A DNA stretch of 63,384 nt, filler included, from Reclinomonas americana ATCC 50394 (lineage: Eukaryota), in assembly GCA_048213135.1 (NCBI GenBank). It is 3 parts of 3 records of this genome, joined end to end, with 100 filler letters (N's around TTAATTAATTAA, not from the genome) between each part and the next. Parts side by side here need not be neighbours in the genome. Positions count along the whole stretch, not along the records: positions 27,936 to 56,468 come from PS015178.1; 2 more parts are not named here. The stretch is one strand, 5' to 3'. Under the pieces are notes generated by a model. The model searched no databases. It saw only the letters and a program-made list of their open reading frames with translations, and was not told the DNA's origin. The first letter of the stretch is position 1, and the number at the start of each line of letters is the position of its first letter. Made by a program: the position numbers and the translations under genes. This document shows positions 38,597-48,767 of this stretch, in pieces.

Positions 38597-40522
38597 TCAT
38601 TTCTCGTCATCGTCGTCGTCGTCGCTCAGCGTCACGTCGGGCACATCATCAGTGTCGACGGATACTTTGGCTGGTGTCGAAGTGGCAACGGCTGCGGGTT
38701 TCGCCTCTCCGGTCTTGGTGGCTGCGCGAATCATGTCATGCGCGGCTTTGGAGCACCACTCGCTGCGAATGTGCAGCGCTTCATCGAGGTTCTGTGAGGG
38801 GGCACGCACATTGAGAGGGCGAAATTAAACAAGTCGAGTGATCTCACTTCGCACCTCACGCATGGCCGCCACACGAGATTTGTGCGACGGGTGCGTCGAG
38901 GTGTATGACATGTGATCGCCGGTGGCCGCATCCATGCGCTTCCACACGCTGCATGGCGGTAAGATGCGCTGTCACTCTGCTTGCACGCGACGATGACGGA
39001 ACCACAAACCCGGGAGCGTAATTTGGATCAAAACACGCGCGTGACATTAACACAATGCCTGCGCAAGGGGTGTGAGTGCGTCATCTCAAGGAAGGGAGCA
39101 CAAAGGAGCGCACAAACACACCAATTTGGTCAGCCTCCTCTTCGTGGAGCCGCGAGTACGGCAACTCCAGTGCATCTGTGAAAAGAATTTAACACGTGTG
39201 AGGCACAGTGGCACGAGTGTGGGCGAGGCCAACTGCCGCAACATCGCATGACCTGCAGCGACGAGTAAGCAACAACAACCACTTCGCGCGTGCTCACAGA
39301 CTCTCCGCATGCGCAACTCGCTTCGCAATAAACGAGGTCATGTCGAATCCAATGAGACTGAGGAACGCACTCACCAACACCAGCGAGGTGTGGAAGAAGC
39401 CTTTTTCTGCCGTGTGTCGAGCTAATGCGTGACCGATTTCGTGTGCCAGAACACTGGGGCGCGCGTGGTGAGGATGGGGTTGGCGACACTCAAATAACAG
39501 AGTACAGACGCAACAGTGCAATCTCATCGTCTGCTTCCATGATCTGCAAGATGCGAGGGAGTGAGATAGTGAGTGAGTGGGGGAGTTGATCTGCCCCGCG
39601 CAACACAACACAACATCCATGAGTCCTCGGAAAACCACAATCTTGCCGCCTTTGTGCCAACGCGGTGAGCAAATCACCCAGTGAGAAGAGGAACAAGAGA
39701 GAGGACTCACCCGGTGCACACATGGCATTGACTGTCTTGTCATCCAACACTGTGCGCCACGACAGTATGTGAGCGCGCACGAGAGACGCAAACGACAGGC
39801 AACAAAAAAACTACTCAACCCGCAAACTTCCAGTCAAACTTGGCACCACTGACCGCCACCAGCCGATCGGCCACCGCCCTGACACGCTTCACATCCTGCG
39901 CGCACACAAGACACGAGTCACGAGGATGAGCTCGCACGCACCAACAAGACGCAGCCAGCCACAAACCGGATGATTATCAGGCATCCGCTTGTACTTCTTC
40001 ACCAACTCAGCAAACACCGCCTCGCCCGTCTTGTTCTCCTGCTCCCGACTCATCGTCACAAAGTGCATCCGACCTGCCACAGACATCGTCACTCATGCAG
40101 CGATGGAACCCATTTGCAATCAGGCATTGCAAGTCTCACCAGTGATCGGCACCTCCTCTCGCACAATCGACCCCGACAGGTAAAAGCCCACAAACGGCAG
40201 TGGAATGCACAGCAACCACCACGCCGATCGCCGAGCGCCCTTGGGCACAGGTCGACGTGCTGTGTCTCACAATCACATGAGACACACTGATGGAAGAACA
40301 AGACTGATTGCGCATATGTGCAACTGTTATCCATGCCAACACTGACATTCTGTGGTGTCGACGATGACATGTACCGACGAGACCATGTCACCGCACCCTG
40401 CACATCTCATGTGTCAACGCAACACAATGAGTGTGACAAAGAGAGAGCGAGAGAGTGACACGCACCTGCTGCACTCGCTGCACTGCGCGTTGGCACACAT
40501 GCAGCACAGACGACAGCAACAT
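38597..40522 (-). CDS. OMA1: Peptidase M48, OMA1-like metalloprotease
   Basis: EEVPITGR, VNAMCAPGGKIVVFRGL, VLAHEIGHALARH (HExxH), YSRLHEEEADQIG, ACFDP, STHPS; basic presequence-like N-terminus. Confidence 0.88.
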
Positions 40523-40609: not shown

Positions 40610-41591
40610 ATGGCTTCGTTCCAAGAGATCGTCGACGGAGTGTTCCTCGGACCCGCCTTTGTGCACGAGCTAAAGGTCCACGCGTGCGCGCCTCTGTGCT
40701 TGTCTGTCTATTTCGCTCACTGTCTCTTGCACACACAGGCGGATGAGCTCGAGTCACGCGGGATCACCGACGTGTTTCCGATCACGATGCGCGTGGCCGA
40801 GTTCCATCCATCGCGATTCACCTATCACAGTGTGACACTGGAGGATGAGGCCGAGGCGCCCATTGAACAAGTTGCGGTCGAGCATGGAAGAGCAAGTGGA
40901 CAGCAGCAACGAAAACAACTCATTATGCAATGTGTATACTTAGCATTTGCATGCGGTGGCCGATGGCATTCATGCGGCGTTGCAGCAGACGGAACCGCGC
41001 CCGGGACGAGTGTATGTGCACTGTGAGGCCGGCATCTCGCGCTCGTCGAGCATGGTGTTGGCGTATTTGGTCAAATATCGCGTTGCGTGCCTCCTCTGCA
41101 CGTGTCTGTCTGTCTCTCTCGTGTGCTGCTGACTGTGTGAGCGTAGGACATGACATTGCGTGATGCTGTTGCGTTTGGAGGAGTCGTCGTCTGCTGCTGC
41201 GATGTTGTTGGCGCTCATGCTGTGTTGTGTTCAGTTTGCGCATGCGCGTGAGAGAAGACCCGTCATTGAGCCGAATGTGGGCTTCTGGGCCAAGCTGGCC
41301 GAGTTTGAGCAGGAGGTGCGGGGCAGCAAGTCGTACACCCGCGAGGACTACACCATCGGTGAGCAGACGAGTCGTCTATTTGCGTGCGTCTACACAATCA
41401 GTGTGCTTATTTCTCACATGCGCAGACATGATGCGCCCGATGTGCCCGCGCATTCCACCGGTGAGTCGAAGCGTGGATGGTGCTGTGTGGCCTTTGCCTC
41501 TCATTAACTCTGTGTGCAGGAGGAACTGCGCAAGCTGTTGGAGCAAAACAACTGGGACATCCACGCGGCGTTCAGTGCAATTTTTAGATGA
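40610..41591 (+). CDS. Dual-specificity protein phosphatase with short C-terminal UBA/CUE-like module
   Basis: EIVDGVFLG, VYVHCEAGISRSSSMVLAYL (CX5R), RRPVIEPNVGFWAKL. Confidence 0.9.
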
Positions 41592-41616
41592 TCATCTCGC
41601 TCGACGGTCGGCTGCC

Positions 41617-43476
41617 TCAGCACGACGTCTGCATCTTTGCCGACCTGTGACGGGAGGAGAGGGGTTAGTGCGAACATCAGATGCGTGTGAAAAAAGCAGC
41701 AAAACAACAACAATGTACCAGAATCCAATGTCGCCAGCGACCTTGTTGCGGTTGCTCAGGATTCTGTGCACTGGATAGTGAGAAGCAGTGGAGTGGAGCT
41801 TATGACAAGGAGACGGTGCGCAACGTGGACAGCTGTGTGAGAATGCCATCGCGTTGCTTGATGGTCTCGGTGACCTTGGCCTGCAGACTCGACAGCTCGG
41901 TGTTCAGAGCCGTGCGCTGCACAGTCGACATTCGTGAGACAGAGTGTGTGAGAGAGAAAACAGAGTGGGCGCCGACAGCACGCACCGTCCAGGTGGTGTA
42001 GTCTTCATTGGCGGTCGCAAACGTGAGGAACACCTGTTCATCACTGGCTTCCACATCCTGTGCGTGCGGCAGAGGCAGGTGAGAACAACAAGTGGAAGAC
42101 AGAGGCGCTGACACCGAATACAGACCAGAATCGTCTGCAGCGAGTCGTTCTCCACCGGCTGCACAACTGCCTCGGTCTCCACAAACTCGGCCTGCACCGG
42201 GGTCGCGTCCGAAGGCAGTTCAACCAGCGCCACGGTGGTAAGCGCCCGCTGGATCATCACAATCTGCAAGAGGGGTGAGATCATTTGTCTCTCGCTTGCA
42301 CAACAGCTGCGACAGGGAACTCTCACATTGTTCTGCAGCTGCGCGATGGTTGCATCTGCAGTTTCGAGCTGCAAGCGGGCATTCATTTCTTGCTCCATGA
42401 AGCGCACCTCCTCGCCCTTCCAGAACGCCAGACTGCCTCGAGCTTCGCAGCACGTCTGCAACGAGGAGAAATGTCCATGAGGACGCCAAAAGACATCGTG
42501 TGCGACAGACGGACAACGCACCTGGATCGTCTTGCCCTCAATAATCAGGCCCGCCTTCTTGGACTGCGCAGTACGAGGTAAAGTTAGTGAAGCAACGGAA
42601 CAAGCGCATGCAAAGGCACGCAACGGCGATCTCGTTGGACATGTCTTGTGCCCACGGCGGCAGGGTGGACGAGTCGGTGACACCAACCATGGCCAGTGTG
42701 GCGTAATCAGCAGCATCCTCCTCTTCCGCCTCTTCCGTCGTCTCCCCCTCGGTCTCCCCCACGGTCACATCCACGACCTCCTCCTCCTCCTCCTCCTCAA
42801 TCTCCTCTTCCTCGGTCTCCCCTTCCTCAATGTCACCTTCCTCAATCTCCTCCTCCTCCTCGGTCTCCACTTCTTCAGTATCACCCTCCTCAATCTCCTC
42901 CTCCTCTTCGACGAACTCCTCCTCCTCCTCGGCCTCCTCCTCCTCCTCCTCTGGCTCCTCGCTGTCGGCCTCCACTTCCACCTCGTCGGCATCGGCGTCG
43001 GCGACATCGTCGAGCGAGTCGAATTCCGACTCCATGCTCACAAACTCGTTCTCCATGAGGCTGAACACCGCGTCCTCGCTCTCGACATCGACCTCCTCAT
43101 CTTCTTCGTCCTCCTCAGACACCCAACCCTCGTCGTGTTGCTCTTCCTCCTCGTCTTGCTCCTCGTCTTCCAAGGCACCCTCGGTGACGACAGCTTCCGC
43201 CGACACAGACTCGGCATTTTGCTCCTCTGCAACCACTGCCGGTGCTACTGACTGCTGCGCATCGTCGCCAGTGTACTCGCTGTCGCTCGCTGAGAAGACT
43301 AGCGGGATGAGCGCAAGGTGCGTGCGAGCGCGGGAAAAAACGGATGACAAGCAAGAGAACGAACCAGTGTACGATGGCGCCGGGAAAGTCGCCGAGTCCA
43401 CCCGCCTGGAGAACTCCACCACAACGAGCAGCGCCGCCACCAACACCACACTGAGAAGGATCGAGCTCCACTTCAT
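41617..43476 (-). CDS. Predicted secreted protein with very acidic tract and C-terminal coiled coil; family unknown
   Basis: Signal-like MKWSSILLSVVLVAALLVVV; long E/D-rich exon ~43290-42625; in-phase downstream exons ending AGDIGFWSAKMQTSC*. Confidence 0.7.
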
Positions 43477-43559: not shown

Positions 43560-45865
43560 TCACTGAGGGGGCGCTATCATGGTCACTGTGGTTCCCTGAC
43601 CCGTCAGTGACGCGGCAAACCGCACACCTCGCCTGATCTCTGGCGTGCGAACCGAGCACAGGTGCACATCGTTCACGCTGAAATGCAGCTCGCCGTCGTC
43701 CAGATCGGCAATCACCTGCGGAAAGAATCAGCTAGTGGCTGCATGCATGCATCCGCTGTGCCACTCACCGACACCAAGTCGCCCTCATTAATCGGCGCCG
43801 ATCCAGTGAATAGTGCCTGCCTTTGATCGTACACGCTGCCGTCGGCGTCAAAAATGCCCCACCTGGTGCGACAGCCACACGTGAGATGTGCCACGCAGGA
43901 ACACAAACAAGCAAGAGGAAACAACAAGCGCACCCGCATCCCTCAATGATACTCTTGTCGAATGTGGCAAATGTCTCGGGAACACAGCCGACGCACACGC
44001 CCCACGGACCATTTCGCTTCTCCAGCACAACATGCAGAGCATGCACGCCGGTTTTCATGAGCTGTGTGACGCACGCGGTCAGCGTCAAGGAAGCGTACAC
44101 CATCACACGCACACACACACATCAAGCACACCTCCGGACACGCCGCTGTCGCTCGCACAGTGCCGCCAGTCAACACAATCTTCTTCCCGTGTCGCCCAGC
44201 AGTAATGTGCGCGCTCTTGCGGGTGAGACTCCACGTCTCGTGCACTTTCGGGGCCGGTTTCACAATGATTTGCTCCTCCTGCGACCTGTATATGAGGACG
44301 GCAAACATACACACGCTAACATGCGCGACTGACCTCGGCTTGTTCACTGGACTCGACCGCGGAGGAACCCGTCATAACGGCGGCACCTTGCGCCGATCTC
44401 GCACCTTCGCCAATCACATGCTCTTGCCTCTCACCACTCGAATACTGCTCCACCGCACCATCACCACTGACATCTGTGGCCAGTGTCTTTTCTCGGCCAA
44501 CGTGCATGAACTGCATGTAGGCAGTGGTCGCTACGTTTTGCAGTTTCCGTCGTGAGTGGCAACAAGCACACAGCATCATCAGACTCACACAAACACGCAC
44601 AAGTCTCCGCTCCACGAGGTCGCAGCAGTGGATGTGAGGAGTCGTAGTTTTCGGGAACCTGTCGCGGCAAGTAAGCATGTGAAACAGACATCACAAATGC
44701 ACTCACATCACACTACTCTCACCAGCGCATATCGACCACGCTCATACGCGAGCTCCAGTGGCAAGATGCCGGTCGATTCGACCTGCCATTCGTCCACACA
44801 CACGCAAACAAGTCAACTACGCGCCCTCCTCACCCCATCACCACATGCAAACAGACGCAACATGTGAAACGAAGAACGCCGGGCTGAGTCGCATGATTCG
44901 CACACACGGGGTGAGGTCGCGGAGAACCTCGCTGAGTGCGGCCTTGTCCTCGCGCGTCCAGTCTGGCGTCGACGGCGCCGACAGTTGACACCGTGCACTA
45001 CAAACGCACTGGGTGGTGAGACGAGTCGCAACGCGTGGCGACAAACGCAGTGTGCGCACAACGCTACCGTCCCCACTCCAGCAACGCCAGCCACAAGTCC
45101 TCCTCCTCAATGCACAACAGGTCACTCTGCAACAGCTGCTTGAACGTCTCTTGCGACAACGTGCGCATACTCGCCGTGCGGAAGACAGCCGGTGCATGGG
45201 CAGCGATGAAATGAAAGCAGCCCTGGAAGAGGGGGTCCACGCTGTTCGCCTTGGCAGCTTCCTGCACAGCTCACCGATGAGCACTTGTTGACCGCACACT
45301 GCCCCGTCTGACACGCACCAAATACAAGCACGCCGTCTGCACATCAAGCGTCGACCAGATGTAATCCTCGGCAATGCGCTGCAGATCGTCGACTCCCCAC
45401 TCCTCCGCCACTCGCATCACCTCAAACGCTCGTTCGGGCGCCAGTGTCACACCGCCCGTGTACACAAACTCCAGCACCGCCAACAGACCAGCCTCCGAGT
45501 CTTGCAAACGCTCAATGCGCAGTGGGTGGCGCGACGACGCCGATGCCGCACTCTCTGCAATCCCGCTCATCAATGCACGCCATGACAATGCACACACACA
45601 CACAGGTGAGAGACACACACGCACCGTCCAGTGTCAATCGCAACCCCGGGCATCGCTCCCACAGCACACTGGCATGCGCGTAGAGAGTGGCCATGGACGA
45701 CGAGGAAGAAGAGGAGGCAGAGTCTGCGACTGCAGTGGTGGACGATGCAGGCGCCACAGAGGGCACAATGAAGTGCACATTGGCGAATCGGTGTGGGTTG
45801 TTGCAGAGTGCCTCCACGCCCTGCAGCAGGCGTTGCACAGTGAGAGGAATGGCGCTCGGGTCCAT
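43560..45865 (-). CDS. BTB/POZ-BACK protein with C-terminal SPRY-like domain
   Basis: FANVHFIV...YAHASVLWERCP; VLEFVYTG; LLQSDLLCIEEEDLWLALLEW; GDLVSVIADLDDGELHFSVND. Confidence 0.85.
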
Positions 45866-45998
45866 GATTGACGATCGATGGCAGGAATGCAGGACGAGGA
45901 CCAACCACTGGTGGACTTTTTCGTCGACAAACTGACGAGTGCGCGAGGTTCCCGCGCATTCTCCCTTTGCGTGTGTGACCAAGAGAGCGTGCCGTGGT

Positions 45999-48767
45999 AT
46001 GAGTCGACGCCGCCGACATCGTTGCGTGCGACGCTCGAACGCAGATGAACGTCGCCGCGTGCGCTCATGCTCTCGTGTGTGCACAGGCAATGGAAGCGAC
46101 GCAGACGACGATGAGGCGGGCGAGGAGGAGGAGGAGGATTCAGTAGATGAGGAGTACATGACCGCGAGTGACTTGTCGTCTAGCGACGACGACGACGATG
46201 GTGGCGGCGACGATGAGCTGCGGATCCCGATCGAGAGAGACAGCGATGTCGAGGAAGACGATGACGAACAGGAAGAAGCCGGTGTGAGTGCCATGGATGA
46301 TGATGCAGATGCGGCGGGCAACTCCGCCGATGAGGTGTGGACCTGGCAGCACTCGGAGGCGTACGGATACGAGCTGGGTGGAATGGTGTTCGGACCGGTG
46401 CTGGGCGATGTGGGCGAGGAGACCGAGGACGTCGACGATGGCTTGTCGGTGGTGGCGGCGGATCATGGTCGGGATGATCCGCAAATGGCCCAACTGACGA
46501 CGGCGTTGGAGGAGGGTTTGCGTGCGGTCAGATCGCTCAAGTTGACGCCAGTGTCACTGGCGGCGTTGCTGGATCGCGTGCGTCTACGCAAGGGCGACAC
46601 GCCGACGGTGACGGCGGAGGAGGCGCAGGTGGTAGCCGCTGTTCGCGAGTGTGAAGTCGATAGGGAAGGCGGCCGATCAACGCTGCAGCGCCTTGCGCCA
46701 CCGCCGCTCACCTGCAGTCGCTTCTCGCTGGTGGAGATGTTCAGTCGTTTCCAGTTGTGTATGGGTATGGAGACCATGGTGGCACGTGCGGGCCTGCAGT
46801 GGGCCGAGTGCACACTGGCGGCGCTGTACCGTGGCACCGTGTTTCTGCGCAGAATGCTCAAACACCGCATCGTGGGCAAGTTCGTCGTGGTACTCGGTGT
46901 GTACACTTGTCGCCAACGCGCCATTCGTCGTGATAGCTCACAGTCGTGTGGTTCGTGTCGCACAGCACGGCCGTACGAGGCGTGGCTGCGGAACCCGTCG
47001 GTGAAGAACGTCAAGTCGCTGCTCGACGAGTTCCGACCGACGCTGGATGTGGTCGACACCATGCTTGCCGACTGGTTCGACGTGGACCGAGCCACCGGCG
47101 GCAACACGGCTGTGCTCGACTCCATCTTCTCCGACGCGGTGGTGCAGCACTTGTTGCGCCGCTCCGCTGTCGTCTTGTACCACGTTGCGTTTGTTTTTTT
47201 GCATCCATATCTTCTGCCAGTGATTCGAAACGAGAATGGTAACCAAATTGCTGCAGCCCAAGTGTGTATCGGCTGCACGTTCGCTGCTGACCATGGTCAC
47301 TGTGCGTGCACTCCAGCTGGCCCACGCCAGCGCCGCAGAGCGCTGCAAGAGTGCAGCGGCAGGTTTGTTGTTTCTCACACAAAGTGCACACTGCAGAAGG
47401 ATTCTCTCAGTGTTTGTTCTTTCGCTGTTTGCACAGTGGCGCGCATCAACGATGCGGATGTGGCCGCGGCACTGGCACGCATGGGCCACACGGTGTACAC
47501 GGGCAGCAGCAAGGTGGCGGCGACCACCGCCATCACGGCCACCAGCGCCCGCTTGCGGCGTCGCTTGCCGGAAATGGACCAGCGAGCTTTGGAGATCAGT
47601 TTTGTGCCGGCGACGGTGGTCAAGGATTTTTCGCTCTCCCAAGCCGCCGTCCGCATCGTGCGCGACATTGTGGAGGTTGGGAGAGATGCGCATTTTCCTA
47701 CTTTCCCTTCTATTTTTTGCGAGAACGTAATCGAACGAGTGTGTTCGCAACCAACAGGATCAGGCCGTGGTGCTGCTGGAGAATGCCAGTCGGTGGCGAG
47801 CCGCTCGCTTGTGTCACGCCTCGCTCGCCGATCCCCGAGCTCTCATGCCTGAGTTGCGCTCGCACAAGTGACTCGATTTGTCTGTTGGGATCTCTGAACG
47901 CCTCTCGTGCAGTGACTTGTGGCTGGCAATGGAAGCCCTCAACACGAGTCGAGTCCGTTGCGTGTGGTGTTGCACAATTGATCTCTTTGCTTGACCTGGA
48001 ATGCTCACGTGCTCTCTCGCTGTGTGCAGCTGGCTACCGCCTGGAGCTGGACGCGTTGCAGAATGCACACACTGCAGTGTCGCAGCTGCTGGATTCCAAC
48101 CCGACGAGCACCGATCTGTTGGCGCTGCTGCAAGTGCTCTCGGTGGTGCACTCGCACTCCATGATCTGGTTCCGCACGCATACCGAGCACGATCCACGTT
48201 GCGCCCGCCCCTCGCCTCCCCTCCTCTTCCACCGCGTGTTCTGTCTCTGAGGGTGATATTTCCAGTTCGTCGGCGACCTCGCATGCCGCTGCCCGCCGAT
48301 CCGACGCCATTCGACGATGCCGAGCACGAGGCGGCGCTGCAGGCCATCATGAAGCCTGGCTCGTCGTCGCGACATGCACTCAACGTGTCAGCCTTTCGCG
48401 AGTTTGCCGACCTGGCGCTGCACAGTTGCGTAATCGGTGGGCGATCAGCCGACACGTGCACAGAGAAATGACCAGACTCGTGCGCGCAGATATTGCTCAG
48501 CCGCGGTCGGCCACCATCACCAAGCAGGCCCTGAAGGAGTTGCACGAGTACGTCGAGTATTTCATGGTTGACCTGCTGAGGTAAAAAATGCTTGTGCCCC
48601 GTGCCGGCAAGAAAGAAAGCAATAGTCTCACCCTGCACCTGCGCAGCAACGAGCAACGCGGTGCCGTCGCGCTTGCGGTGCGCGCCTCGAATTTCACCGA
48701 CACCTCCACGCTGTCGGTGACGGAGGAAGACATGATGGCCGCAGTGGCATGTTCAGCCTTTAGCTGA
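45999..48767 (+). CDS. Multi-exon protein with acidic N-terminus and tandem divergent histone folds (H4-like, H3-like, H3-like)
   Basis: LLRRSAV...RSLL...DVAAALARMGHTVY (H4-like); AVRIVRDIVEDQAVVLLENA...LMPDDLWLA (H3-like); AFREF...IAQ...ALKELHEYVEYFMVDLL...VTEEDMMAA (H3-like). All junctions are GT-AG and in phase. Confidence 0.72.

Follow-up and report, generated by a model that had tools for sequence, protein, structure and literature searches.

Does a single intron-bearing gene of Reclinomonas americana encode several histone folds in one chain, and what kind of protein would carry them? The question is raised by positions 45999..48767 (+) of the window, the 63,384-nucleotide stretch of DNA that was analysed. 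The first-pass annotation, made from the sequence alone, read this locus as one spliced gene for tandem H4-like and H3-like folds, followed by a second H3-like fold, behind an acidic tract.

Gene structure and genomic setting

Eleven exons spliced by coordinates give a 2073-nt frame without an internal stop, comprising 690 codons and the stop. The single spliced gene is thereby borne out, and all the peptides quoted in the first-pass annotation are present in its product. The exons are as follows.

45999..46020, +, exon 1: basic head MSRRRRH, starting at the first in-frame ATG; donor GTTGCG at 46021
46087..46896, +, exon 2: polyacidic tract (46089-46469, aa 9-135) and helical middle region; GC3 0.73
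46966..47183, +, exon 3: last part of the middle region; helix 1 of candidate fold a; GC3 0.90
47257..47362, +, exon 4: long central helix of candidate fold a
47437..47675, +, exon 5: helix 3 of candidate fold a, a 22-residue linker and the start of candidate fold b
47758..47852, +, exon 6: remaining central helix and loop 2 of candidate fold b
47913..47956, +, exon 7: helix 3 of candidate fold b
48030..48197, +, exon 8: spacer in which no placement of a fold profile exceeds shuffles
48266..48424, +, exon 9: Pro/Arg-rich spacer and helix 1 of candidate fold c
48490..48580, +, exon 10: loop 1 and beginning of the central helix of candidate fold c
48647..48767, +, exon 11: remainder of candidate fold c; stop TGA at 48765-48767

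The 10 introns are 60-82 nt long, and all of them end in a CAG acceptor. Six of the ten begin with the donor GTTGCG, a hexamer that is found 76 times elsewhere in the window on both strands. The splice sites chosen are the only ones needed to reach 690 codons. Introns 3-10 shift the frame or contain an in-frame stop (introns 6 and 10), and their removal is required for an open frame. For example, the frame shifts across both introns 3 and 4 (73 and 74 nt) and is open only in the spliced chain. Introns 1 and 2 are in frame. Intron 2 (46897-46965, 69 nt) has the atypical donor GTGTGT and is less certain than the other introns.

The coding sequence has a GC3 of 0.76 and a GC2 of 0.46, and the GC of its introns is 0.41-0.64. 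The neighbours include kinesin, calpain, FHA, and phosphatase exons, and the GC3 of the Pfam-supported exons among them is 0.60-0.88. The composition and introns are like those of the neighbours, which argues against a viral origin. In the explanation we prefer, it would be a native, presumably nuclear gene of an intron-rich, GC-rich eukaryote. No RNA sequencing run is listed as containing the stretch, and the single matching run yielded one unspliced 288-nt DNA contig (46950-47238). A tblastn search of the window with the gene model and with H3/H4 found neither a paralogue nor a histone gene, and self-BLAST of the 690-residue protein found no internal repeat.

Acidic tract and charge

MSRRRRHR occupies aa 1-8 of the product. 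The following 127 residues (aa 9-135) include 50 D/E and 2 K/R, giving a net charge of -48, so the acidic tract that had been described behind a short basic head is real and about 127 residues long. The whole protein contains 112 D/E versus 71 K/R. The net charges of the three candidate fold units are +5, -1, and -5; a true H4 fold carries +9 and a true H3 fold +1. These values support the loss of basic charge that had been noticed by eye, and judged by net charge, the units do not have the basic DNA-contacting surface of core histones. Because they are near neutral, a scaffold or histone-binding role is suggested rather than DNA wrapping.

Three candidate histone folds

The candidate folds occupy the following positions.

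47130..47486, +, fold a (aa 333-402): H4/H2A-like histone-fold candidate, spanning introns 3 and 4
47553..47934, +, fold b (aa 425-504): H3-like histone-fold candidate, spanning introns 5 and 6
48388..48749, +, fold c (aa 609-685): second H3-like histone-fold candidate, spanning introns 9 and 10

The segments recognized in the first-pass annotation lie at aa 332-372 and 388-406 (a), aa 450-475 and 493-502 (b), and aa 606-614, 621-650, and 674-683 (c). To these was added a fourth, MVARAGLQW, at aa 238-246 (46776-46802 of the window).

Profiles were built from the H3, H4, H2A, and H2B genes on giant-virus contigs. Whole folds were aligned with helix 1 to helix 3 forced, over 65 columns and with preset gap costs. 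The positive evidence for the folds comes from this alignment routine, which is our own, and from shuffled nulls. The gene was chosen by eye for its histone look from very many windows, so the per-protein probabilities overstate the case.

The two top placements of the H3 profile are folds b and c, exactly the segments proposed by eye. Fold b scores 23.6 bits (reached by 4/3000 global and 0/2000 segment shuffles) and fold c 23.5 bits (5/3000 and 1/2000), and the next placement scores 9.8 bits. Fold a is the best placement of the H4 profile at 15.8 bits (125/3000 global, 20/2000 segment shuffles) and of the viral H2A profile at 14.7 bits (70/1000 global, 8/2000 segment shuffles). An H4-then-H3 tandem (a plus b) scores 39.4 bits, which is reached by one of 2000 shuffles. 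A second, independent H3 profile, built from 32 viral H2B-H2A-H3 triplets, places c first at 18.2 bits (7/1000 global, 0/2000 segment shuffles) and b second (130/1000 shuffles). The product thus shows above-chance, in-register similarity to histone-fold profiles.

On the H3 profile, no score above 18.2 bits is reached by any other open frame of the window (348 frames, 51,863 residues). The reversed sequence of the protein, used as a control, scores 14.0 bits, and the remainder of the protein, which is of similar composition, scores below the shuffle mean. Gap costs of 3/0.3 and 6/0.5 leave the same three placements on top with similar counts; under harsh gap costs (8/1), b and c drop to 80 and 81/1000 shuffles. 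The helix-3 ends of the three placements fall at 401-402, 504-506, and 684-688.

True core-histone classes score 11.8-25.7 bits on each other's profiles, the highest value being that of a true H2A part on the H3 profile. By this measure, the units are as histone-like as H4 is H3-like. Since the cross-class scores overlap, the three units look like histone folds without a firm class, and the labels "H4-like" and "H3-like" are to be taken loosely.

Local hmmsearch with an H3 profile from 52 viral-contig H3 genes gives 8.2 bits, reached by 1/2000 shuffles. Its matches are two stretches, on b and c, which fall on the same helix 2 profile columns. The H4 profile gives 3.2 bits (16/2000 shuffles) on helix 3 of a. 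When the H4 profile was widened to 13 loci, it stayed near-identical (effective number 0.70); the whole-fold scores use another profile. In a gapless-block test with H4 and H3 taken from viral locus L002, the best placement of the 41-residue H4 block within aa 141-690 is at aa 332 (15/300 shuffles). The optimum of the 19-residue H4 block is at aa 388 (1/300), and that of the H3 helix-2 block is at aa 629 (28/300). A crude propensity plot predicts helices of fitting lengths. AlphaFold2 in single-sequence mode on the contiguous read-through 46479-47183 gave a mean pLDDT of 46.9.

The whole-fold alignments give statistical support to the tandem of H4-like and H3-like folds with a second H3-like fold, clearly for b and c and weakly for a. 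The fourth segment fared differently, as no H2A, H2B, H3, or H4 fold placement was found at MVARAGLQW. The H2B fold profile has no placement above chance anywhere on the protein (262/1000 shuffles). Beside this segment, Smith-Waterman first raised an alphaN-alpha1-like stretch at aa 255-293; the H3 alphaN-alpha1 sub-profile score there is reached by 449/2000 shuffles. The first-pass observation is therefore confirmed in part: the exon chain and the peptides stand, candidate folds b and c are clearly supported and fold a weakly, and the fourth segment is unsupported.

Searches of standard databases

The Pfam and PDB searches were made with exon pieces, and each candidate fold is split over three exons, leaving about one third of a fold per piece. 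With 8 exon-level pieces, no histone-fold family of Pfam was matched at E<=1, and the only matches were unrelated (E 0.04-0.11). The core histone family PF00125 had no match on the exon pieces, whereas genuine members of it on the fetched contigs reach 40.8-158.7 bits (cut-off 26.4). PF02269 and PF04719 were absent among the Pfam matches at E<=1, and a diverged member could escape detection with pieces of about one third of a fold. PDB sequence searches with 7 pieces found no histone, TAF, TFIID, or SAGA chain at E<=10.

Among 1.84 billion representative proteins, 46500-47852, which takes in the 3' portion of exon 2 together with exons 3 and 5 in frame, had no match at E<=1e-3. Residues 150-398 of the read-through frame, compared with proteins of 339-1080 aa, likewise had none at E<=1e-3. 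Dynein-fragment-like rows for 46419-47183 in the protein atlas were dismissed as noise of low recognition (1173). The spliced protein gave P=0.06 in hhalign against each of the H3 and H4 alignments, and pairwise Smith-Waterman against H3 was not significant (54/500 shuffles). No relatives that could show conservation of the units turned up among the representatives, which counts against the folds.

Alternative explanations

A real gene may encode a lineage-specific helical protein with no histone fold, in which Ala/Leu/Arg-rich helices align with histone profiles by chance. We regard this as unlikely. Such a reading is favored by the blank outcome of every standard search, the low absolute local hmmsearch scores (8.2 and 3.2 bits), the marginal fold a, and the selection of the gene by eye from a very large scan. 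In addition, one decoy frame of the window scores 23.2 bits on the H4 profile, and one uncharacterised viral-locus frame scores 23.3 bits on the H3 profile. However, chance would have to produce three placements by four profiles in the same register, side by side in the order of a fused pair. Each of the two H3 placements also beats at least 2995 of 3000 shuffles, and the rest of the protein, of like composition, does not score even the shuffle mean. The folds could also be artefacts of hand splicing across introns, in a gene model that is partly wrong or at a silent locus. Wrong junctions would break the profile alignments, and these run smoothly over six junctions. Eight of the ten introns must go, for a frame shift or a stop, to keep the frame open, and exon and intron composition differ as expected. 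A gene-model error is very unlikely in our view, even with no RNA run listed for the stretch, with possible retention of the in-frame introns 1 and 2, and with the atypical donor of intron 2.

If the folds are real, they may belong to a known double-fold family or to a virus. The folds of SPT3 are classed as H4-like and then H3-like, which is also the order here. SPT3 is described as having two tandem histone folds, of which that at the N-terminal side is TAF13-like and that at the C-terminal side TAF11-like (PMC6672047; 10.1101/2021.07.09.451791). In the account of its distribution in PMC6672047, it is patchy outside opisthokonts, and a member could be very diverged. The leading candidate of this kind is a very diverged SPT3-type protein, followed by a fused TAF6/TAF9-like or CENP-type pair; the product would then be a transcription or kinetochore scaffold and not a new kind of protein. 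We consider this quite improbable. The pair has about 330 additional residues in front of it and a third candidate fold behind it. No such Pfam family was found at E<=1 and no TFIID or SAGA PDB chain at E<=10, although exon pieces of about one third of a fold make this a weak test, and a search of the 1.84 billion representatives using exons 3 and 5, which are fold pieces and equally weak as a test, found no SPT3 or TAF. A domesticated giant-virus histone repeat had been suggested as well, meaning that the host took up a fused viral gene of the H4-H3 type, which then gained introns and an acidic head. The fetched viral contigs carry an H4-H3 doublet (L152, 234 aa), a chain of four folds (L151), and H2B-H2A-H3 triplets whose C-terminal tails are polyacidic (L060, L062, L072-L111). 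The order of H4 before H3 is common to both, and PMC8357426 and PMC11222145 describe fused doublets of viruses. However, no relative was found in the searched viral contigs, and the best pairwise E against the 127 fetched viral histone sequences is about 1. On class profiles, viral folds reach 85-139 bits versus 16-24 here, and L152 is basic (46 K/R vs 24 D/E). A second scan for diverged viral H3 took the best 80 of 141 loci, and Marseillevirus-type doublets may lie outside it. The units of the gene are not class-assignable, and its setting, with 10 host-type introns and host-like GC3, is not viral. The suggestion of a viral origin is not upheld by these results, and we consider it very unlikely.

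A putative scaffold with three candidate folds

We prefer, with about even confidence, to read the product as a 690-residue protein with a basic head, an acidic tract, a helical middle region, and three very diverged histone-fold units, acting as a scaffold. It is probably a protein-binding scaffold and not a DNA-wrapping histone. From the N-terminus, the basic head would be followed by a disordered polyacidic stretch of about 127 residues, the helical middle region, and the three folds. Folds a and b, joined by the linker of about 22 residues, may pair within the chain as a histone-type pseudodimer, by analogy with other double-histone-fold proteins. Fold c at the C-terminus, being unpaired, would dimerise with the fold of another chain, which may be a second copy of the protein or a partner. 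The acidic tract may capture basic partners, and the protein would function as a protein-protein scaffold or a histone-binding factor. The odd number of folds leaves one unit without a partner, which counts against this reading.

Comparison with known histone-fold proteins

If the folds are real, there are highly diverged, fused histone-fold proteins in eukaryotic genomes that escape family models and billion-sequence searches. The gene would then provide a cellular case for how histone folds were fused, neutralised, and made into scaffolds, and the presence of H4-like and H3-like units with a polyacidic tract in one chain would parallel the fused histones of giant viruses. If they are not, the gene shows how far an eye-level histone likeness can reach in an Ala/Leu/Arg-rich helical protein.

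Several known proteins combine histone folds in one chain. In SPT3 (SUPT3H) of SAGA, as presented in PMC6672047, two diverged folds of one chain pair with each other and have a scaffold role rather than one in DNA wrapping. The predicted protein is similar in being a eukaryotic, putatively nuclear protein with two diverged tandem folds, its location and folds both being predictions. It differs in its long acidic and helical N-terminal half, its short inter-fold linker, and its third candidate fold, and its exon pieces matched none of the SPT3 families. Sos1 and ABTB2/Cca3 carry double histone folds that are H2B/H2A-like and joined to GEF or ankyrin-BTB parts, according to the review PMC13088155. 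There, as here, a very diverged fold pair with low core-histone identity would lie within a multi-part non-histone protein. In contrast, the candidate pair here is H4/H3-like and is accompanied by an acidic tract and a third fold.

Eukaryotic "high-identity" H3-H4 doublets and multiplets have two, three, or more predicted folds in both orders, as reported in PMC13520046. The doublets tabled there are at least 88% identical to a joined human H3-H4 query and keep the dimerisation and DNA-contact residues, and the accompanying tree admitted sequences from 75% identity to one doublet upwards. In the present gene, the similarity lies at the limit of what can be detected, and basic charge has been lost.

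The fused histones of giant viruses include H4-H3 and H2B-H2A doublets, triplets, and quadruplets, as outlined in PMC8357426, PMC11222145, and PMC9145170. The candidate protein resembles them in carrying several folds in a single chain, the H4-like unit preceding an H3-like one, and resembles the triplets (L060, L062, L072-L111) in having a polyacidic tract in the same protein. A further reading starts from this likeness and sees a fused H4-like/H3-like pair with a third fold and an acidic chaperone-like tract in a cellular, intron-bearing gene without detectable relatives. The gene would be a surviving cellular example of diverged fused histone chains so far known only from giant viruses, a view to which we assign a very small probability. 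It could then be a counterpart or source of the viral repeats, or an old capture from them, and the protein could be a histone mimic that co-assembles with host H3-H4. The viral folds are plainly class-assignable, basic, and encoded in uninterrupted single frames, whereas the units here are neutral and lie in a gene with 10 introns and native composition.

Gene Structure and Locus

The window is eukaryotic nuclear DNA with a GC content of about 0.58 and 16 N runs. Pfam searches of its open frames identify FHA, kinesin, MmgE/PrpD, calpain, M48 peptidase, and metallophosphatase exons. The following features are discussed.

45999-48767 (+): gene encoding the protein, 11 exons
45271-45867 (-): divergent adjoining gene
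39242-39604 (-): cluster of the hexamer GTTGCG (hexamer count)
40871-41745 (+): cluster of the hexamer GTTGCG (hexamer count)

In three-frame translation, the coding-like stretches of 45999-48767 switch frame. When 11 exons are joined, they give 2073 nt and 690 open codons with zero internal stops, so that the single spliced gene proposed in the first-pass annotation is borne out by the sequence. The introns, from 1 to 10, are 66, 69, 73, 74, 82, 60, 73, 68, 65, and 66 nt long. All ten end in the acceptor CAG. Six begin with GTTGCG, and the others with GTGTGT, GTTTGT, GTTGGG, and GTAAAA. GTTGCG, which appears to be an unusual donor consensus, looks like the usual donor of the organism, since it occurs 76 times in the window on both strands and clusters within further genes, the M48 peptidase gene among them. 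Eight introns must be removed for an open frame: six of these would cause a frameshift, and the remaining two, introns 6 and 10, are multiples of three in length but hold an in-frame stop. Introns 1 and 2 preserve the reading frame, which therefore does not force their removal. The coding sequence has a GC3 of 0.76 and a GC2 of 0.46, with intron GC of 0.41-0.64; the Pfam-supported exons of neighboring genes have a GC3 of 0.60-0.88.

The likely start codon of the divergent gene lies near 45867, about 131 bp from the ATG of the gene studied here. One of its exons matches BTB/POZ weakly, over columns 64-106 of the 110 in the profile (18.7 bits, below the cut-off of 20.5). According to a review, animal ABTB2 combines a double histone fold with a BTB domain in a single chain (PMC13088155). 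The head-to-head arrangement of a BTB-like gene and a putative histone-fold gene may be a coincidence.

Layout of the Protein

All peptides quoted in the first-pass annotation are found in the spliced product. No internal repeat was detected in it by BLAST, and no paralogue or histone gene was found elsewhere in the window.

Layout and net charge of the 690-residue protein
Residues 1-8: basic head
Residues 9-135: polyacidic tract, 50 D/E and 2 K/R, net -48
Residues 136-332: helical region with no assigned fold, +3
Residues 333-402: segment a (H4-like), +5
Residues 403-424: linker of 22 residues, +2
Residues 425-504: segment b (H3-like), -1
Residues 505-608: spacer, -2
Residues 609-685: segment c (H3-like), -5

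Histone Likeness of the Three Segments

Remote family, PDB, and structure searches saw the unaltered window sequence, hence exon pieces and never a whole fold, because each proposed fold spans three exons in different frames. Pfam searches, made with seven exon pieces and with the frame read through the introns, returned unrelated matches only (E 0.04-0.11). With seven pieces as queries, phmmer listed neither histone nor TAF chains among PDB sequences at E<=10. A word-indexed protein search found no relative. HMMER, run in full against 1.84 billion representative proteins with a frame that covers exons 3 and 5 as well as the 3' portion of exon 2, gave zero matches at E<=1e-3; exons 6-11 were covered by short-piece searches only. 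A protein-atlas look-up of the gene region gave noise, and single-sequence structure prediction of the contiguous region before fold a reached a mean pLDDT of 46.9.

The spliced protein was compared locally with real histone genes from giant-virus contigs. These comprised an adjoining H4 and H3 pair (L002), six H4-like loci, 52 of 57 H3-like loci (three short partial matches and two loci with in-frame stops were dropped), and 40 loci of fused H2B-H2A-H3 triplets, representing 32 distinct sequences. Local tests used residues 141-690. The two blocks of segment a that had been aligned to H4 by eye have their best gapless placements exactly as claimed, reached by 15/300 and 1/300 shuffled sequences. 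In hmmsearch with filters off, the H3 profile scores 8.2 bits (equaled by 1/2000 shuffles), with matches at 446-476 and 628-658 that share the same helix-2 columns; the H4 profile scores 3.2 bits at 387-406 (16/2000). By hhalign, P is 0.06 against each of the H3 and H4 profiles.

The positive evidence for folds comes from a custom profile aligner and shuffled nulls. The aligner requires every one of the 65 profile columns between the start of helix 1 and the end of helix 3 to be placed on the sequence, with gap costs fixed in advance at 4 and 0.4 bits.

Whole-fold placements and shuffles reaching them (residues 141-690, shuffled globally)
H3 profile, best: b, ending at residue 504, 23.6 bits; 4/3000
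H3 profile, second: c, ending at residue 685, 23.5 bits; 5/3000
H3 profile, third: 9.8 bits, under the shuffle mean of 12.7
H4 profile, best: a, ending at residue 402, 15.8 bits; 125/3000
Triplet H3 profile: c, 18.2 bits, then b, 12.2 bits; 7/1000 and 130/1000
Triplet H2A profile: a, 14.7 bits; 70/1000
Triplet H2B profile: no placement, 9.6 bits; 262/1000

A tandem score, in which an H3-like fold has to come 70-140 residues after an H4-like one, reaches 39.4 bits at 402/504, equaled by 1/2000 shuffles. When shuffling is confined to each segment of 95-100 residues, a is matched by 20/2000 on H4 and 8/2000 on H2A, b by 0/2000 on H3, and c by 1/2000 and 0/2000 on two H3 profiles. Taken alone, fold a is marginal. 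The top three placements are unchanged and the counts similar at gap costs of 3/0.3 and 6/0.5; at 8/1, b and c fall to 80/1000 and 81/1000 because their loops exceed those of H3 in length.

As controls, the reversed sequence scores 14.0 bits on H3 and 13.4 on H4. The remaining open frames of the window, 348 in number with 51,863 residues, score no higher than 18.2 bits on H3, and two of them score at least 15.8 on H4, one of these 23.2. Among 145 viral-locus frames of at least 200 aa, 35 reach 23.5 bits on the H3 profile, each scoring at least 53.9, and presumably bear H3; the next-best frame scores 23.3. By the same routine, true histones score 85-152 bits on their own class's profile and 11.8-25.7 on that of another class (for example, H4 on H3, 17.3; a viral H2A part on H3, 25.7). 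The scores of a, b, and c fall within this cross-class range, and their distance from H3 and H4 is therefore about that which separates the core classes from one another. This argues for three putative histone folds without firm class, and not histones proper.

A fourth segment (MVARAGLQW, residues 238-246), taken earlier as a weaker histone-like unit, found no support: no H2A, H2B, H3, or H4 fold placement falls there. Beside it, residues 255-293 (about 46827-47012), which span the exon 2/3 junction, resemble the alphaN helix of H3 together with the first part of helix 1. This stretch was raised by Smith-Waterman and phmmer, but the likeness is not significant, since 449/2000 shuffles equal it.

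Fused Histones on Viral Contigs

The fused viral histones fetched include an H4-H3 doublet, acidic-tailed triplets, and a four-fold chain. The doublet (L152) is compact, in a 234-aa frame; the chain (L151, 375-aa frame) has an H2B end followed by H2A, H3, and H4. Both orders of H3 and H4 thus occur on viral contigs. The triplet family (L060, L062, L072-L111; 32 distinct sequences of 288-459 aa) has a consensus with a polyacidic C-terminal tail of about 30 residues, and fused histone chains with an acidic tract of their own are therefore common in that family.

A 488-aa viral frame, L053:421-1884 (+), has a clear H3 at its C-terminal end, with 61% identity to that of L002; its N-terminal part has an HPDKNP motif as in J-domains, then Ser/Arg/Gly-rich basic repeats, and the frame possibly encodes a fusion of a J-domain with histone H3. 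In the 202-aa viral frame L008:1417-2022 (+), no more than the rear of an H4-like fold is kept (39% identity over residues 60-97), and behind it come long stretches of D/E and a Cys-rich end. At L004:1450-2250 (+), located on a second contig from one giant-virus bin, a canonical H4 runs on without a stop for at least 160 more residues, to the contig end.

Interpretation and Comparison with Known Proteins

The reading of the gene as a domesticated viral histone repeat, offered in the first-pass annotation, is poorly supported. The fused viral histones fetched are basic, fall clearly into histone classes, and are each read in a single frame. The protein has no significant match to any of 127 viral histone sequences, and no relative of it was found on viral contigs. 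Chance resemblance to histones is a further rival. The shuffle counts for b and c weigh against it; the gene was picked by eye for histone likeness from a very large scan, and the nominal probabilities are therefore optimistic. Another rival is a fold pair of the SPT3 type, or of a different TAF type, that has diverged very far. The remaining rival is a faulty gene model. No RNA run with the stretch was found, and the sole run located yielded one unspliced 288-nt DNA contig, so the exon chain is well supported by sequence and not by transcripts.

We give about even chances to the reading that the gene is native and that its product, which would contain three diverged histone folds, serves as a scaffold or binds histones. 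Folds a and b, with 22 residues between them, would pair within the chain, fold c would find its partner in a different chain, and the head, at net -48, would bind basic partners. The near-neutral folds and this head argue for the binding of basic partners over DNA wrapping, although pairing, partners, and role are all inferred. The earlier observation largely stands in its exon chain, peptides, and units b and c; of its interpretation, the fold-like units are kept with modest confidence, and the viral origin and fourth fold are not.

No cellular protein described as having a polyacidic head, then an H4-like/H3-like pair and a third fold, was met in a literature search not aimed at this exact architecture. 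The eukaryotic double-histone-fold families named in the review include Sos, ABTB2/Cca3, SPT-type, and high-identity ones (PMC13088155). SPT3 is described as a TAF13-like fold followed by a TAF11-like fold (PMC6672047). In a 2026 survey, the eukaryotic H3/H4 doublets and multiplets are proteins of high identity to H3 and H4: doublets in its tables share 88-98% identity with the query, and its tree was built from sequences with at least 75% identity to one doublet (PMC13520046).
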